A stretch of DNA of 64,000 bases from Escherichia phage vb_EcoM_bov9_1 (MT884006.2), one strand, 5' to 3'; shown: positions 16,292 through 24,283, counted from the first letter of the stretch. Numbers and translations are program-made. The notes: generated by a model not told the origin, from the sequence alone.

Positions 16292-16295
16292 CAAT

Positions 16296-16325
16296 GGGGA
16301 CCTTTCGGTCCCCATATTTTTATTT
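16296..16325 (+). terminator. Terminator after the baseplate operon
   Basis: ggggaccTTTCggtcccc followed by atatttttattt. Confidence 0.6.
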
Positions 16326-16610
16326 ACGGAATGAAATGAAAGCAGAAACTGAAGCAACTAAACTGTCTTCAATATAAACTTCAATTTTTACCGGAGCTTC
16401 TGACTCAAATTTACCTGTTACTACACCCTGAAAAATGCTTTCAGTCTGTTCTGGCTTTGAAAAATTTTCAGAAGGGAAAATTCCGAACTTTTTATCTGTT
16501 CCAAAAATTTTAATAAATTCATCGTAAACTGCTTCATTAAAAGCGTTATCAGCAGGAATAACGCCTTCAACTACAAGTTCTTGACCTAAAAAGCGCAAAG
16601 AAGATTTCAT
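16320..16610 (-). CDS. Hypothetical protein (alt.-3-like position)
   Basis: 96 aa; ATG 16610 with GAGGAA site; early promoter directly upstream. Confidence 0.6.
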   Translation of the reverse strand: MKSSLRFLGQELVVEGVIPADNAFNEAVYDEFIKIFGTDKKFGIFPSENFSKPEQTESIFQGVVTGKFESEAPVKIEVYIEDSLVASVSAFISFRK

Positions 16611-16641: not shown

Positions 16642-16671
16642 ACTATAACACAACATAAGGAACTTGTAAAC
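16642..16671 (-). promoter_or_regulatory. Early sigma70-type promoter
   Basis: Minus strand GTTTACA - 17 nt - TATAGT with TGT extended -10; nearly identical to the alc promoter. Confidence 0.55.
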
Positions 16672-18728
16672 TACATTTTGAACTTTTTAGACATTCCGTT
16701 GATGTTAACCAAAGAAGCTAAGATTTGAGAAACTTCGTTTTCCTCTTCTTTTGATTCTTCTACAAGGAATTGATTAAATCCAGCCATTGGACGAACTTCA
16801 CCAGTTTCCATCAGATGGTCGCCATCATATACTGATTCTTCTAATTGTTCAGAAGGAGGAACGATTGTACCTTCGATTAGATACTTGTTATAAGCAGTTT
16901 CTTTCATCATGTACGTACTTACTTTATTAATCTTCAGTAAAATTCCACGCGGCAAAATAACTTCAGCTTCGGATGGAAATCCTGATAAATGACCTGGAAC
17001 GATAACTTTAACTCGTTCAGCTCCTTTAATTACCATACCTACATTAGTTTCAGCGTCTTCATTCGCATATGTAGAATGACTACCCATATGCATTAAATCT
17101 TCAGCATCAACTGAACCTTCTCCTTCACCAGAAAATACTGCTCCGGAATCATCTAAGGCCATATAATTTTTACCATATTCACCGAAGATATTTGGCTTGA
17201 GTGAAGTAGATACAAAGTTCTTGAAATAGAACATTTTATTTTCTATATTATGACGTAAAGTTTTAAAGGTAACTTCTTGCCCACGATAAAGAGTAGTTCC
17301 TGGAGGAAGAACTGAACCTTTAGAAAATGCAGAATCCAGCGTCTCAATATGTTTAATAGCTCGTTCCATATATTCTTCACGGGTAGAATCAGGTTTACCT
17401 AGAAGGAACGAGTTCATTTCAACATATGAATCTGCGCAATAATCTTCAATTACATCAGACTCAGCCTGAGTTAATCCTTTTGGAGTTACTTCAGTGCTTG
17501 CATATTCATATGCCTGAGCAGCAGATTCATCAATTAATTTATAAATTCCATTCATTACAAATTGAATAATAGCTGTCTTTTCATCTGGTGTAGCTTTAGA
17601 ACCTTTAACTAAATCATTGACAATTTTCTTAATAACATCAAAGCTATTAGAAATATTAATGTCAGCAAGATCGCTTAAAATTTTATCAGTTTTATAATCA
17701 AAGAATTCTTTATTCTTTAAATATTCTTGAGAACCTTGATATGTTATATCGCTCTGCAGCTTGATAGATGGATCGCGTAAACGTGCATGGGCCAATGCAA
17801 TATGATTTCGGAAGCTTTCGAGTTCATAATCACTAGATTTAAAACGAGAAGCACTTCTCATACCACCGATAGCTCCTTTGCTAAAGTTTGAACCAACCTG
17901 AATAACGCCAGAGTTCATTGGTCCTTCTGCTTTATATACCGGAACTTTAGATTCAAACTCTTGATATTTCTTAGCAGCGAAGCTATCACCCTGAAGTGAA
18001 GCATCAACAGTAGAATATTGAGCTTGTGCTGCTAATCGACGACTAATTTTAGTTTTCTGAATAACAGCTTGATCCGTGCGCTTATCATTTTCTAAAGCAA
18101 TAGAAGCAGCAACAGCAACAGCTTTAGGAACAGCATTACCTGTTTTAACGTCTACATAAACATCACCAACCTTTGATTCAACTTTTGTGAATAACTCGGT
18201 TGAAATAGGAGGTACACCTGGAATGTCTTCTAAATTGGCATTTTTACGGTAAACCATAATATATGCGTACTTTTTATCATAATCCCAGATTTCCTTTAAA
18301 AGAACATATCGACCTGCTCCTTTAGTACGTACTAAACGGTCAGCAATAACTTGCATTTGCCGAGCAGCGCCATTTGTTTTACTTTTTAGTACGCGGAATA
18401 AGCATGCATCAATTTTATACTGTTTCATTGTTTGAAGAGCAGTATCAAAAACAGCATTAATGACGCCAATTGGATTTCCACCCAAGTTTTTAAGCTTAAC
18501 TAATGATAGTTTCTCATTAACACCTATCATTACGATATGCATCATTTTGTCGCCTGGCTTAACGTTTTTATTCGTATCACCGCCAGAGGTGTATGTACAA
18601 AATCTAAATCCAGGAAGCACGCTTTCTTCACCTGCTTGAATAGCAAAAATTTGAGGTATTTTATGCTTAGGATTTAAGTTAACAACCGGCGCCGAAGCGC
18701 CGTCAAATAATTCTGTAATAAGTTCCAT
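16671..18728 (-). CDS. alt: Alt-family ADP-ribosyltransferase (head-packaged)
   Basis: 685 aa; N-terminus MELITELFD; ART signature R (TLYRGQ), STS (FVSTSL), ExE (SEAEV). Confidence 0.88.
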   Translation of the reverse strand: MELITELFDGASAPVVNLNPKHKIPQIFAIQAGEESVLPGFRFCTYTSGGDTNKNVKPGDKMMHIVMIGVNEKLSLVKLKNLGGNPIGVINAVFDTALQTMKQYKIDACLFRVLKSKTNGAARQMQVIADRLVRTKGAGRYVLLKEIWDYDKKYAYIMVYRKNANLEDIPGVPPISTELFTKVESKVGDVYVDVKTGNAVPKAVAVAASIALENDKRTDQAVIQKTKISRRLAAQAQYSTVDASLQGDSFAAKKYQEFESKVPVYKAEGPMNSGVIQVGSNFSKGAIGGMRSASRFKSSDYELESFRNHIALAHARLRDPSIKLQSDITYQGSQEYLKNKEFFDYKTDKILSDLADINISNSFDVIKKIVNDLVKGSKATPDEKTAIIQFVMNGIYKLIDESAAQAYEYASTEVTPKGLTQAESDVIEDYCADSYVEMNSFLLGKPDSTREEYMERAIKHIETLDSAFSKGSVLPPGTTLYRGQEVTFKTLRHNIENKMFYFKNFVSTSLKPNIFGEYGKNYMALDDSGAVFSGEGEGSVDAEDLMHMGSHSTYANEDAETNVGMVIKGAERVKVIVPGHLSGFPSEAEVILPRGILLKINKVSTYMMKETAYNKYLIEGTIVPPSEQLEESVYDGDHLMETGEVRPMAGFNQFLVEESKEEENEVSQILASLVNINGMSKKFKM

Positions 18729-18731
18729 GAT

Positions 18732-20825
18732 TTATCCTTGAACGAACTTGTAAGGCATGTTTGTAATATCTATGCAAGACGCAATAATTCCAAGAGATGA
18801 TTCTACTTTCTGTTTAATATTTGATGAAACAAATGATGCAAAGTCAACTCTGTCTTCTATTTCAATATCACCTGTCATTGCAGCCAATTCACCAGTTTCC
18901 ATTAAATGGTCTCCATCATAGATTACCGATTCGGTGAGCTCTTCCGTGGTCATAACTTCAGCTTGAATGAGTTTTGTATTATTAGATGTTGTTCCGTCAT
19001 TATTAGAAGCATCGGTTATTTTATTAACTTTGACCATCAATCCACGCGGTAGAATAACTTCAGCTTCTGTTGCTATTCCGAGACTTCCTGGATATACAAC
19101 ATTAACTTTATGAGCTCCATCAATTGCCCATCCTATTTGAACTTTAACATATTCAGGATTTTCTTTATACGCTCTTATTTCGTTTGGATTAATAGTTATT
19201 CCTTCTTCATTTTTATCAACTGTTAATTCATTGCGAGCTTCTGGTTCTAAAAGACCAATACCAGCATGTGTGATTCCAAAACGTCCAAAAATGATAGGAG
19301 TTAAAGAAGTAGATACAAAATTTCTGAAGTAGAACACTTTATTTTTAACTAACGCTTCATATATAGGAGCAGTCATACTTTGAGCACGATAAACTGTAAT
19401 GCCTTCTGGTATACGGTCACCATTTTCAAAAGCTGAATCTAAGTTATTTATAGCAGATTCAATTTCTTTTTCACTCATTACATCGTATCGTTCTGGATTG
19501 TAACGACCTAAAAGAAGATTATTGATGTCAGTATATCCTGATCCACAATACTCTCTAATGCCGCGCTTTTGCGATGGAGTATATTTAGAACCATCACGTG
19601 CAATGGTAATATCAATCATTGGACCTGCACCAATTCCAGAAAAGCTATAAATCATTCGTTTGAGGAATTTAGTTTTTGCTGCGTTCCAGGAATTTTTAGT
19701 TATTTCTTCCCAGACTTCATCTGGCTGCCCTTTACGAGTTTTATTATGTTTATCAAGCCAATTATCTTTATATTCTTCAAATAATTGATTAACAGCTGCT
19801 GCGTATTTCTCTAAACATTTTATTGAAGTAGTTGGTTCATTTTTAATCGCATTAAGAATTACATCTTTAATTTTTTCAGAAACTTCATTAACCTCACTTT
19901 TTAAAAAGAATTTATAGTCATAGTGAAGTTCATCTGCGGTTCCTTCGGCAATAATTTTTGCTGCCTTAGTTTTAGAAGCTAATGAATTAATTCCAAGCTT
20001 CATTTCTTCTGCTTCGGGAATTAAAGGAGCTGTAGCAGGTTTATTGAAATTAGCTGCGGTAGATTCATATTTCTGGAATAATTCGCTTTCAAATCTAGAA
20101 GATTCTAATGACTGACTTTGTGCAATTGCTCTACGGGAAATTTTAACTTTAACGATAACAGCTTGGTCAGAGCGTTTATCATTTTCTTGTGCAATAGATG
20201 CTGCAATTGCCTCATTTTTAGTTACTTGAGCTCCAGTATCTTTATTGATATAAACATCGCCGACTTTCGATTCAACCTTAGTAAAGAGCTCGGTACTAAT
20301 TTCAGGAACTCCTGGAATGTCTTCTAGTGATACATTTTTGCGATGTATAAGAATATATGCGTACTTTTTATCATAATCCCAGAGTTCCTTAAGAAGGACG
20401 TATCTGCCACCTGAACGACTACGGATAAGTCTATCAGCAATAACTTGAATTTGTCGAGCTTGACCAGCAGTTTTAGACTTAAGAATACGAAGCATACAGG
20501 CATCAATTTTATACTGACGCATCGTCTGCATTGCAACAGTAAAAACTGAATTGATGTAATTAATTGGGCTTGGACCGAGACCTTTTAATTTAGCAATTGA
20601 ACCTTTAGCAGTTAATGTAAAAGGAACAATATGCATCATTTTATCGCCCATTTTTAAATCGCGATTAGTATCACCTCCAGATGTATAGGTACATAAACGA
20701 AAGCCTGGTTGTTCAATTGCATCATCAACATGAACTGAAAAAATTTGTGGTATTTTCTTCTTTGGATTTAAGTTTGTAATCGGAAGAGTAGTATCTTCGT
20801 CAAATAATTCTGTAATAAGTTCCAT
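18732..20825 (-). CDS. Alt-family ADP-ribosyltransferase, tandem paralogue
   Basis: 697 aa; same N-terminal 200 aa pattern; R (TVYRAQ), STS (FVSTSL), ExE (TEAEV); 3-nt gap to downstream alt. Confidence 0.85.
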   Translation of the reverse strand: MELITELFDEDTTLPITNLNPKKKIPQIFSVHVDDAIEQPGFRLCTYTSGGDTNRDLKMGDKMMHIVPFTLTAKGSIAKLKGLGPSPINYINSVFTVAMQTMRQYKIDACMLRILKSKTAGQARQIQVIADRLIRSRSGGRYVLLKELWDYDKKYAYILIHRKNVSLEDIPGVPEISTELFTKVESKVGDVYINKDTGAQVTKNEAIAASIAQENDKRSDQAVIVKVKISRRAIAQSQSLESSRFESELFQKYESTAANFNKPATAPLIPEAEEMKLGINSLASKTKAAKIIAEGTADELHYDYKFFLKSEVNEVSEKIKDVILNAIKNEPTTSIKCLEKYAAAVNQLFEEYKDNWLDKHNKTRKGQPDEVWEEITKNSWNAAKTKFLKRMIYSFSGIGAGPMIDITIARDGSKYTPSQKRGIREYCGSGYTDINNLLLGRYNPERYDVMSEKEIESAINNLDSAFENGDRIPEGITVYRAQSMTAPIYEALVKNKVFYFRNFVSTSLTPIIFGRFGITHAGIGLLEPEARNELTVDKNEEGITINPNEIRAYKENPEYVKVQIGWAIDGAHKVNVVYPGSLGIATEAEVILPRGLMVKVNKITDASNNDGTTSNNTKLIQAEVMTTEELTESVIYDGDHLMETGELAAMTGDIEIEDRVDFASFVSSNIKQKVESSLGIIASCIDITNMPYKFVQG

Positions 20826-20848
20826 GTTATCCTCTCTAGTGTTTATTC

Positions 20849-20856
20849 TATTTATA
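20849..20856 (-). promoter_or_regulatory. Late promoter (TATAAATA) for the Alt paralogue pair
   Basis: Minus-strand TATAAATA 23 nt upstream of ATG 20825; GAGAGGA site. Confidence 0.5.
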
Positions 20857-20862
20857 AAATTA

Positions 20863-20878
20863 AAGGCCCGAAGGCCTT
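20863..20878 (-). terminator. Hairpin after the 61-aa ORF
   Basis: aaggccUUCGggcctt on minus strand followed by AU-rich tract. Confidence 0.4.
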
Positions 20879-20881
20879 TAA

Positions 20882-21067
20882 TTAATAGAGAGCTAAAAGA
20901 GTACGATATACTTCAAACTTTGGACCTTTTTCATATGGATCAAATCTTTCCGTGAATTCATCATATGCTAGTTTATCTGGGAATTCAAGAATAACCTGCG
21001 ATACCGCAGTGGAAACATCTCCACCTTCTTTTTGAGCCACGACAATTGTTTCTAAGTAAGCTTTCAT
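20882..21067 (-). CDS. Hypothetical small protein
   Basis: 61 aa; start overlaps ligase stop. Confidence 0.5.
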   Translation of the reverse strand: MKAYLETIVVAQKEGGDVSTAVSQVILEFPDKLAYDEFTERFDPYEKGPKFEVYRTLLALY

Positions 21068-22527
21068 AAACCAGTTACCTCATGAAAATCGCCAAATACA
21101 TCTTCGAACGTATTAGCTTTAGTTTTATCTTCACGTAAACGAATTGCAATTGGAAGAAATAGCTTAACGTAATCAGTACGTCCATCTAATTTTACCCAGC
21201 CGTTGCATTCGCACTCTAGAATTTTTCCAATATAATAATTTTGGTTTTCCATAATGCGAGTACGGTCAAGTTCATGCGATTTTACGCCGGCTTTATCTTT
21301 TAAGCCTGAACCAGCATTTACTTTAATTTTTCCACACTCTGATTCAAGAATGAAACCACCTGCTTTAGTAGGGTCTTTACGGTGAGGATAAATTCCTACA
21401 ATTTTTAAATCAACATCAATTACTTCTTTAAATTTATAAAGATTTTTTGAACGAGCATTTTCCCATAATCCATCGATATTTTTGAGAATAATACCTTCAA
21501 GACCTTGGTCAATATACTTTTTGTAAATTACCTTAGCTTCATCTAGGTTATTTACTACTTGGTTTTCAATTAAAATTACTTTATCATAGCCTGATGTCAT
21601 TTGTTCTAGTTTAGAAAAACGTACATCATATTTTAAACGAAACGCCGGAAGACCGTATATTTCTACCAACGGAACATAATCCCAGACCTGAAACTTCATG
21701 CATTGAGCTTCTTTTTCTGAAATAGTTCCCTTTAAAGATTTATTAGCGATTCCATTAGAAGTAGTACGTGATTCAGCTACTTCGGCGAATTCTTTAGCTT
21801 TACTAATTTCAGGATAAGCATCAAAAAGAAAATCTAGGCCTTCTGGCTCCTTTTCAACTTGCTCATGGTATACCAATTCGCCATCAATTAACACACCTTC
21901 TGGATGAATCTGGCGAGCTTCTGCAGTCATTTTGATTAACTCTTCTTTGAGAAGATCTAATCCTAGATATTCATTACCAGCTCGTGATAAAAGACGAACA
22001 TCATCTAATTCATCACCTCTGACTTCAGCAAAGCACCGAGCTCCATCAGCTTTTAATTGGGCAAAGGCTGGAAATTTAATATTCTTGCTAATGCCTTTTT
22101 CATCATAAGAACTTGCCAGCATTTGAGGTTGTTCAGGAATTAAACCTGGCCAAACTTTGTTTGCAATAGATACTGATGCACCGCATTCAAGGTCTCGCAT
22201 CATCACCCGACGCAAAACTTCAACATCATCTTTTTTACCGTCAGTAATATATCCAGTTAATTCCTCAATTGCCGCATTTCCAGTCAATTTCCGAGTAGCT
22301 AATGTGAATTCAATGAAGTCAAGCATATCGGTAAGAGTCAACATTCCAAAACTCTGGGTAGCAATACCAGGTTTAGGCCATTTCTTGATATAATACTGTA
22401 ACCCACGAGAATAAGTCAGACGATATACTCGTTTGAGCAATTCATTATCTTTATTCTTTTCAAGAATTGCTTGCTTTTGCTTAGTTGAACCAATAGATGC
22501 TATTTCATTCAGAATTTTAAGAATCAT
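21064..22527 (-). CDS. 30: ATP-dependent DNA ligase gp30
   Basis: 487 aa; MILKILNEIASIGSTKQKQAILEKNKDNELLKRVYRLTY; adenylation motif KADGAR. Confidence 0.95.
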   Translation of the reverse strand: MILKILNEIASIGSTKQKQAILEKNKDNELLKRVYRLTYSRGLQYYIKKWPKPGIATQSFGMLTLTDMLDFIEFTLATRKLTGNAAIEELTGYITDGKKDDVEVLRRVMMRDLECGASVSIANKVWPGLIPEQPQMLASSYDEKGISKNIKFPAFAQLKADGARCFAEVRGDELDDVRLLSRAGNEYLGLDLLKEELIKMTAEARQIHPEGVLIDGELVYHEQVEKEPEGLDFLFDAYPEISKAKEFAEVAESRTTSNGIANKSLKGTISEKEAQCMKFQVWDYVPLVEIYGLPAFRLKYDVRFSKLEQMTSGYDKVILIENQVVNNLDEAKVIYKKYIDQGLEGIILKNIDGLWENARSKNLYKFKEVIDVDLKIVGIYPHRKDPTKAGGFILESECGKIKVNAGSGLKDKAGVKSHELDRTRIMENQNYYIGKILECECNGWVKLDGRTDYVKLFLPIAIRLREDKTKANTFEDVFGDFHEVTGL

Positions 22528-22793: not shown

Positions 22794-23629
22794 TAGAATG
22801 CTCCTTGGAAAATATTATCACCACTAGTAGGTCTATTATACAAATACTCTATGCCACCGGGTTTAATATAGTTCCATGTCTGAAACGGATGCGTCTGATA
22901 TGGATGATATAGATTATAAGGATTAAATCCAGGAGTTCTCCAGGTAGTGTTCCAAGGAAAAGAATCATTTTTAATCATCTTTTCAATTACATCTTTTATA
23001 GCTTTTTCACTATCAAAACTTTCTTTATTTTCATTCGATGGAAAAAGCTTATTCTCTACATCATTCCATGTATAAACTCGCTGTGCAGTTTTTGGAATAC
23101 TGTCACGCTCCCCTCGAGCCATCCAATAAACAGGAACATTTAATATTTCACTCGCATGATCGCAGTGGTGAGCGAGATCGTCAATATAACAAATTACGTT
23201 ATATTTCTCTTTTGCCTTTTTGAACAACTCTTCTTTTGAAGAATCATGACCACACATCAATACTTCTGAGAAGGCACCAGGAAAAAGAGCATTCAAATTA
23301 AATTGACGATTCAGCAGAGCGTCAATAGAATCACCCAGTGCTGTAACAGCTACAAAATTATAATCTTCTTTTAATTTGTTAATTACACACAGGGCATCTT
23401 TATATGGAGACAAATAGCGAATAAAATCTGAACGATTATACTTTTCGATTAATTTAACACCAAGTTCTTCATCGCAATTAAAGAGCTTACCAGGAGAAAT
23501 AAATTTTTCGTCCTGAATCATTTTTAAAATATGTTCCAACGGAAGATTATATTTTTGGGCAAAATAAGGAAGGCCCGATTGCCAGCTTAAACACACCCCG
23601 TCAATATCAGTCAAAATAGTAGGCTTCAT
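22793..23629 (-). CDS. HAD-superfamily hydrolase-like protein (30.2-like position)
   Basis: 278 aa; N-terminal DIDGV matches HAD motif I (DxDG[TV]). Confidence 0.65.
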   Translation of the reverse strand: MKPTILTDIDGVCLSWQSGLPYFAQKYNLPLEHILKMIQDEKFISPGKLFNCDEELGVKLIEKYNRSDFIRYLSPYKDALCVINKLKEDYNFVAVTALGDSIDALLNRQFNLNALFPGAFSEVLMCGHDSSKEELFKKAKEKYNVICYIDDLAHHCDHASEILNVPVYWMARGERDSIPKTAQRVYTWNDVENKLFPSNENKESFDSEKAIKDVIEKMIKNDSFPWNTTWRTPGFNPYNLYHPYQTHPFQTWNYIKPGGIEYLYNRPTSGDNIFQGAF

Positions 23630-24084
23630 AGAGAGTCTCTTAATAGGTTTAACACATCAATAAATTCAGCTTCGGTTAGTATTGTATCATCTTTTGTTAG
23701 ACCACTAGCCATGCTATGCTTCAAAATTTTTCCTTTAGAGGCTTGTAAGGCATCACGAAACCCCTTGTTTTGAATCGCTGCTTCAAAATATGCATTTGTA
23801 TACAACTCTTTCCATGCTGCAGAGTATCTTGAAAAGGGAATTCCAAGCCAGAAAAGCGTCCCACGGTCCGCAGCTCTTGCATAAGCTCTTCCACTTTGCT
23901 GGGCGGCCAAGCCGGAGAGCCCAAATATACGTTTTTGTTGTTCAACATTTTTCACCTTGCATCCTTGGAGGAATCCTTCAAGACCTCCGAATTGAATACC
24001 ATCCATGACGAAAGGCCATTGGGCGAAATTACTTAATGCACACGATGGCCATCTAAAATTGCTTCTAATCTCTAACTCAGACAT
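23626..24084 (-). CDS. NADAR-domain (YbiA/DUF1768-like) protein (30.3-like position)
   Basis: 152 aa from ATG 24084 (track used TTG 24090); LSNFAQWPFVMDGIQFGGLEGFLQGCK resembles YbiA core. Confidence 0.6.
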   Translation of the reverse strand: MSELEIRSNFRWPSCALSNFAQWPFVMDGIQFGGLEGFLQGCKVKNVEQQKRIFGLSGLAAQQSGRAYARAADRGTLFWLGIPFSRYSAAWKELYTNAYFEAAIQNKGFRDALQASKGKILKHSMASGLTKDDTILTEAEFIDVLNLLRDSL

Positions 24085-24283
24085 TTTCAATACTTATAAT
24101 TTCAACATCAGCCCAATGACCATAGCAAGGAAGACGAAATTCAACTGGCCAGTTAGGGTCCTTTTCTAATATAATAGACTCAACTTGTGGTTCTTCATGT
24201 TCATCAGTATATGGATTTTTATCTGTTACTTTATATGTGACCTTAATGTACTGAATTCCAAAAATCTTATTAATTATATTCAT
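24077..24283 (-). CDS. Hypothetical small protein
   Basis: 68 aa; ATG verified. Confidence 0.45.
   Translation of the reverse strand: MNIINKIFGIQYIKVTYKVTDKNPYTDEHEEPQVESIILEKDPNWPVEFRLPCYGHWADVEIISIENV

Follow-up and report, generated by a model that had tools for sequence, protein, structure and literature searches.

Why does Escherichia phage vb_EcoM_bov9_1 carry, immediately behind its alt gene, a second full-length gene of the same family? We addressed this question in a stretch of 64,000 nucleotides (nt) of its genome (MT884006.2), hereafter called the window, which is a T2/T4-like Tequatrovirus genome segment. An earlier note on this DNA, made by a model from the sequence alone, had described two minus-strand open reading frames (ORFs) of 697 and 685 amino acids lying 3 nt apart, and our ORF listing agrees with it in all coordinates and lengths: the upstream gene, copy A, occupies positions 18732–20825, and the downstream gene, copy B, positions 16671–18728. 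The reading that we prefer, and to which we assign a probability of about three in four, is that the two genes form a late operon encoding two paralogous arginine-type mono-ADP-ribosyltransferases of the T4 Alt family, which are co-packaged and have different targets. The tandem Alt pair as such is already known and annotated, and our finding mostly confirms the annotation. Database records label the pair “Alt-like RNA polymerase ADP-ribosyltransferase (x2)”, “alt_1 / alt_2”, or “NAD(+)--arginine ADP-ribosyltransferase (x2)”. Among the paralogous alt duplications given by Nolan et al. (2006; PMC1524935) are T4 alt.-1/alt.-2 as well as ORFs of RB49 and 44RR, the one in 44RR being full-length. 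A 2026 genome paper suggested functional divergence for the same pair, which is essentially the interpretation of the earlier note. What we add is the exact origin of T4 alt.-1/alt.-2, an analysis of selection, and a modular, cassette-like pattern of evolution.

Do both copies encode complete ADP-ribosyltransferases (ARTs)? The two proteins are 42% identical (BLASTP, E 1e-160), with 68% identity over residues 1–240, 15% over residues 241–414, 39% in the ART domain, and 44% in the C-terminal propeptide. The value for residues 1–240 bears out the N-terminal similarity that had been noticed before. The divergence claimed for the remaining regions holds for the central part, but not for the C-termini as such, and the other main difference resides in the loop between the S-T-S and E-x-E motifs. 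Pfam PF03496 (ADPrib_exo_Tox) matches both proteins (E 9e-38 for A and 2e-20 for B), and phrog_802, “Alt-like RNA polymerase ADP-ribosyltransferase”, spans both end to end. The catalytic motifs are R480, S505-T-S507, and E587-A-E589 in copy A, and R482, S507-T-S509, and E587-A-E589 in copy B. In an alignment of 20 family members, none of the catalytic R, S, S, E, and E residues varies. On alignment, both copies therefore keep the full R / S-T-S / E-x-E signature ascribed to them, and neither lacks a catalytic residue.

The AlphaFold2 model of copy B (mean predicted local distance difference test score, pLDDT, 75.5) consists of an α/β N-domain (residues 11–240), an all-helical middle (about 250–470), the ART domain (about 480–625), and a low-confidence C-terminal tail. 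When this model was compared with the PDB by Foldseek, only R-S-E ARTs were retrieved (Vis, C3, Certhrax, CDTa, VIP2, and iota; E 8e-9 to 1e-4), and these enzymes—C3 exoenzyme and iota Ia included—have both the catalytic fold and the R / S-T-S / E-x-E residues in common with the Alt copies. By sequence, the PDB offered no solved structure of an Alt protein, and its binary-toxin ARTs matched only weakly; the NCBIfam search yielded no match. The two-tandem-ART trait of VIP2, iota Ia, and CDTa, in which the N-terminal adaptor is a degenerate ART fold, was not found in the Alt copies. The PADLOC defence models matched neither A, nor B, nor the alt.-3 homologue downstream of them. Together, these analyses show a common architecture of A and B: a 6-residue N-propeptide, an Alt-specific α/β domain of about 240 residues, a helical middle, an ART domain resembling those of C3 and VIP2, and, from a conserved L-x-E|S..YDGD motif onwards, a C-terminal propeptide. 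In pairwise comparisons involving Escherichia phage vb_EcoM_bov10K1 (MT884007.2), T2, and Shigella phage Sfk20, the ratio of nonsynonymous to synonymous divergence (dN/dS) was 0.04–0.06 for copy A and 0.035–0.06 for copy B, at dS values of 0.14–0.25. These low ratios indicate that both genes are held by purifying selection.

Which of the two copies is the T4 alt orthologue? This question, which had been left open, is settled by alignment to T4: alt corresponds to the upstream copy, and alt.-1/alt.-2 to the downstream one. Judged by its position and by both of its ends, copy A is the orthologue of T4 alt. The protein is 70% identical overall to T4 Alt (NP_049811; NAD+--arginine ADP-ribosyltransferase), with 243 of the 244 aligned N-terminal residues identical and 85–95% identity beyond residue 557, that is, over the C-terminal 140 residues. 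The locus, promoter, hairpin, catalytic motifs, and gp21 sites are likewise the same. The interior is different: the identity is only about 30% at residues 245–417, rises to about 70% over the N-terminal half of the ART domain, falls back to about 30% in the loop of residues 515–556, and amounts to 57% for the effector part as a whole. Despite this divergent interior, the flanking gp48, gp54, and alt.-3 are 99% identical to their T4 counterparts. By its sequence, the interior of copy A is thus a T2-type allele set between T4-type ends. The database has more of this allele than of the T4-type, with 351 phage records as compared to 175 (tblastn at at least 80% identity, the threshold that also applies to the record counts for copy B).

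Copy B, in turn, can be assigned as the intact form of the T4 pseudo-ORFs alt.-1/alt.-2 (NP_049810, NP_049809). Over the first 347 nt of copy B, including the stop / 3-nt / ATG junction, the T4 DNA is about 96% identical, and its distance from alt (3 nt) and its Shine-Dalgarno sequence agree as well. Consistently, copy B matches the alt.-1 and alt.-2 PHROGs with E 2e-40, while copy A reaches only 1e-21. Unlike copy B, the T4 remnant carries a 1-nt deletion, which shifts the frame near codon 54, and its sequence jumps from the region of copy B nt 347 straight to the last 20 nt of the gene. The missing piece is exactly 1,699 bp and is bounded by the two copies of a 9-bp direct repeat, CTAAAAAGT, the first of which, at 18381–18389 on the minus strand of the window, marks the upstream edge of the T4 deletion, and the second, at 16682–16690 (minus), its downstream edge. 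According to the RefSeq note on T4, alt.-1/alt.-2 arose when the beginning of alt was duplicated long ago. Set against copy B, the T4 DNA shows instead that they are the deletion remnant of a full-length paralogue, and not a partial duplication. The exact deletion junction of T4 (T4 segment 7060–7160) is found in 91 records, including environmental isolates; it is shared by independently isolated phages such as HY03, vB_EcoM_F1, G8, SG1, RB55, and RB59. Its presence in so many independent isolates identifies the loss of copy B as a circulating natural allele rather than a laboratory-strain artefact.

Is the pair peculiar to this phage? The 4.8-kb alt region is 100% identical to that of bov10K1 and 96–98% identical to those of hundreds of T-even-like phages. 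Copy B is essentially intact in 402 phage records, T2 and RB7 among them, mostly at 95–99% identity and in single uninterrupted tblastn pieces, and it is found alongside both alleles of A (for example, in G3G7 and SHFML-11). The arrangement in T2 (MH751506.1: AYD82792, AYD82791) differs in no material respect: the two genes encode 697 and 685 amino acids, lie 3 nt apart, and are each 97–98% identical in protein sequence. The T2 record names the second one “alt.-1” and lists its product as a hypothetical protein. The corresponding proteins have 694 and 707 amino acids in Dhakavirus IME281, again with a 3-nt gap between the genes, and 697 and 707 amino acids in Moonvirus Moon. This distribution shows that the pair is the ancestral and usual state in T-even phages. 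In Krischvirus ECD7 (segment 4365–5189), a free-standing ART of 274 amino acids directly follows alt; it has an E-C-E motif but lacks the Alt N-domain, and is a different duplication outcome at the same locus.

How have the two copies diverged? The ART domains of Tequatrovirus, Dhakavirus, and Moonvirus sort into separate A and B lineages. The Tequatrovirus and Dhakavirus A domains are 94% identical, the B domain of Tequatrovirus is 55% identical to that of Dhakavirus and 50% to that of Moonvirus, and any A is only about 39% identical to any B. The N-domains behave differently: A and B within one genome share 66–68% identity (60% in Moon), as compared to 46–47% between Tequatrovirus and Dhakavirus, whether A is compared with A or B with B. 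The flanking baseplate proteins of these two genera are 61–66% identical, and the middle regions of A and B, at 9–21%, are not really alignable. In addition, a tract of about 700 bp at about 18900–19590 (minus), which covers the segment of copy A encoding the ART domain, is 85–95% identical in nucleotide sequence to the IME281 alt gene, while the remaining locus is 55–72% identical. Such a recombination tract within a diverged locus indicates that the catalytic cassette of A was exchanged between the genera fairly recently. These patterns show that the Alt proteins evolve as modules, in which the N-domain tracks the phage lineage and the effector part is swapped as a cassette between alleles and genera.

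What keeps the N-domains of A and B alike within a genome? We rejected recent gene conversion as the cause, since the coding regions of the two N-domains are just 71–73% identical in DNA beyond one exact tract of 29 nt. A conversion further back in time may account for it, as may co-evolution with a component of the head. The 29-nt exact repeat (18701–18729 and 20798–20826) comprises the start codon and the first eight to nine codons (MELITELFD) of both genes, and its possible causes are a nucleotide-level constraint at the translation start and propeptide region, or a micro-conversion.

Next, we investigated whether both proteins carry the features of head-packaged proteins. The prohead core of T4 holds about 40 copies of Alt, which are injected alongside the DNA (PMC9026906). 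Trimming by the gp21 protease takes place at ITE-6 and, according to mass spectrometry, at LTE-619 (PMC5694885). The predicted gp21 sites are ITE-6 and LTE-632 in copy A, and ITE-6 and LEE-631 in copy B; the predicted mature proteins would run from residue 7 to residue 632 in A (70.1 kDa) and from Leu7 to Glu631 in B (69.1 kDa). The MELITE N-propeptide is retained in both, and the C-terminal L-x-E of both aligns with LTE-619 of T4. This C-terminal site is followed by an invariant S..YDGD..ME.GE motif, and E631, Y634, D635, G636, and D637 are invariant in the 20-sequence alignment. The retained N-propeptide and C-terminal L-x-E site strengthen the proposal that the two proteins are head-packaged, as the earlier note had supposed.

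How would the pair be expressed? As the note had it, one match to the T4-type late-promoter consensus, TATAAATA, is located upstream of the pair at 20849–20856 (minus), 23 nt before the ATG of copy A, and none is located between the genes. The hairpin and the TATAAATA upstream of copy A are identical to the sequence upstream of T4 alt, a gene that is late in both transcriptome and proteome data (PMC9697503). A scan of the region for σ70 promoters and terminators gave no candidate above the shuffled expectation and nothing convincing between A and B, and folding of the A/B junction detected no significant RNA structure. We infer that both genes would be transcribed from TATAAATA as one late bicistronic transcript. 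Direct reading of the sequence places a Shine-Dalgarno GAGAGG before copy A at 20831–20836 (minus). At the junction, the stop codon TAA of copy A (18734–18732) and the ATG of copy B (18728–18726) are separated by the 3-nt spacer 18729–18731 (minus), and an AAGGA sequence lies within the last codons of copy A at 18735–18739 (minus). Copy B, which starts 3 nt past the stop of copy A, is probably translated from this AAGGA site of its own.

On the basis of these features, we propose the following course of events. The late transcript from TATAAATA would cover A and then B. The shared N-terminal part would bring both proteins into the prohead core, where the gp21 protease would cut them at both ends. 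A and B would be injected together with the phage DNA, and would then ADP-ribosylate different host proteins in an arginine-specific manner. Distinct substrates are suggested by the fact that the regions likely to select the substrate—the middle, with 15% identity, and the insertion of about 40 residues between S-T-S and E-x-E—are essentially unrelated in the two proteins. The packaging of copy B and its separate target are, in our judgement, well-founded inferences.

Several points weigh against a second packaged enzyme with a target of its own. T4 and 90 other records have no intact copy B, and B must therefore be dispensable on some hosts at least. Since both proteins carry the arginine-specific E-x-E, the targets of A and B may overlap. 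As for the operon, the window holds 12 occurrences of TATAAATA against an expectation of 9, which is no significant enrichment, so the weight of the promoter match rests on its position and its identity with T4 alt. A second exact TATAAATA, which may be there by chance, lies inside copy A at 19445–19452 (minus), 717 nt upstream of the start of copy B. In the literature, we found only annotation-level remarks on copy B, and no virion proteomics, transcript mapping, or enzymology for it in any phage.

Could copy B simply be a redundant back-up or dosage copy, acting on the same substrates as Alt, such as Arg265 of the RNA polymerase α subunit and others? The likeness of A and B in architecture, E-x-E motif, and propeptides would fit such a role, as would the known promiscuity of T4 Alt (Depping 2005) and the full viability of T4 without B. 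We nevertheless consider it unlikely, since the two ART domains share only 39% identity and the middle regions 15%, and the A and B lineages have persisted across genera, the Tequatrovirus B domain being closer to the B domains of Dhakavirus and Moonvirus (55% and 50%) than to any A. A dN/dS of about 0.05 in both genes is also not expected of a purely redundant copy. We regard it as less probable still that copy B is made late but left unpackaged, acting in the producing cell on late host or phage proteins or in superinfection exclusion. ModA and ModB are T4 ARTs that act without packaging, and the literature search gave no direct evidence of B in virions. Copy B, however, retains the MELITE propeptide of Alt, nucleotide-identical over 29 nt, together with the Alt N-domain at 68% identity and the C-terminal processing motif L-x-E|S.YDGDHLMETGE, and this explanation is disfavoured because these parts have no obvious role outside the prohead. 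Finally, the destruction of the gene in T4 and 90 other records, and the RefSeq view of alt.-1/alt.-2 as an old partial duplication, might suggest a decaying duplicate, a pseudogene in the making. This is hardly credible for a full-length ORF with intact catalytic residues and 95–99% protein conservation in about 400 records, and the selection analysis (dN/dS 0.035–0.06 at a dS of about 0.23) contradicts decay.

We therefore favour two co-packaged ARTs with different targets, and extend this reading by a more tentative one, which we would not yet hold as probable: copy B may be a second packaged and injected ART whose own host target is possibly a component of defence or translation, and the shared N-domain of about 240 residues may be a lineage-matched capsid-delivery adaptor for effector cassettes swapped by recombination. 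In copy A, this domain (residues 1–240) is encoded at 20106–20825 (minus). The Alt N-domain is rare by sequence: a search of 1.84 billion representative proteins gave 69 matching clusters. Looking in these for N-domains fused to other effectors, we mostly met the ART domain again, since PF03496 is present in 57 of the 66 clusters scanned. Close homologues show a PF26846 match beside PF03496, although the equation of PF26846 with the N-domain is our assumption. Two proteins, P0183 (485 amino acids) and P0184 (541 amino acids), match the Alt N-domain weakly (E 3.5e-8 and 8e-7) and have no Pfam domain in their remaining sequence; they are possibly N-domains joined to non-ART cargo. A Foldseek search of the N-domain against predicted viral structures retrieved the Alt proteins of other T4-like phages and, with lower scores (E 1e-10 to 1e-4, template modelling score about 0.4–0.6), large uncharacterised proteins of other myoviruses, a few of which are annotated with Zeta-toxin, ParB, or deaminase domains. 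If these distant fold matches are real, the N-domain adaptor would serve more than ARTs. A general delivery role of the N-domain is a lead, and not a result.

Among the known T4 proteins, Ip1, Ip2, and Ip3 offer an analogy in function only. They are likewise several co-packaged and co-injected proteins whose N-propeptide is cut by gp21; each of them inhibits a different GmrSD variant, and their presence is variable among T-even phages (PMC12373910). Unlike Alt, they are small and non-enzymatic, are unrelated in sequence, and number about 360 per head, as compared to about 40 for Alt (PMC9026906). The combination of a conserved delivery part and an exchangeable effector is the typical pattern of arms-race effectors, which suggests that copy B may matter on particular hosts only. 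The model phage T4 is the exception, with its deletion remnant, and copy B has apparently escaped experimental study because T4 holds this remnant only. About three-quarters of T4's genus carries copy B, and if B is indeed packaged and has its own target, decades of work on the “alteration” biology of T4 would cover only half of the normal injected ART arsenal.

The pair is situated between gene 30 / alt.1 and alt.-3 / gp54, which is the conserved site of the Alt family. On its upstream side, the DNA ligase gene for gp30 (21064–22527, minus) is followed by the alt.1 homologue (20882–21067, minus). The latter matches Pfam PF24647, “Phage_blade” (E 7e-28), and is just 77% identical to T4 alt.1, while its neighbours are 99% identical to T4. 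The hairpin mentioned above (20858–20883, minus), with an AAAGGCC-UUCG-GGCCUUU core and a U-run, has a folding energy of −14.4 kcal/mol (z −3.6) and the same sequence in T4. It probably terminates the transcript of the upstream gene 30 / alt.1, and the annotation of phage Moon has a terminator at the corresponding position.

On the downstream side, a σ70-like promoter at 16642–16670 (minus; TTTACA, a 17-nt spacer, and TG-TATAGT, with 10 of 12 matches) is conserved in T4. It would drive the alt.-3 homologue (16320–16610, minus) separately, thereby marking the 3′ limit of the alt operon. A bidirectional terminator (16294–16315) comes next, and beyond it lies baseplate gene 54 in the converging orientation.

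Two genes of this neighbourhood bear on ADP-ribosylation in other ways. The alt.-3 homologue matches Pfam DUF5498 and is 99% identical to its T4 counterpart; mutants of T4 Alt.-3 with a C-terminal extension escape the CmdTAC defence, the toxin of which is an mRNA ADP-ribosyltransferase (PMC11618068). At 23626–24090 (minus) lies the homologue of T4 gene 30.3 (Pfam PF08010), a gene characterised as AdfN, a NADAR ADP-ribosylglycohydrolase that undoes the DNA modification by DarT1 (PMC11825919). With the AdfN-type 30.3, the Alt pair, and the CmdTAC-linked alt.-3, the stretch from 30.3 to alt.-3 thus groups several genes of ADP-ribosylation conflict.

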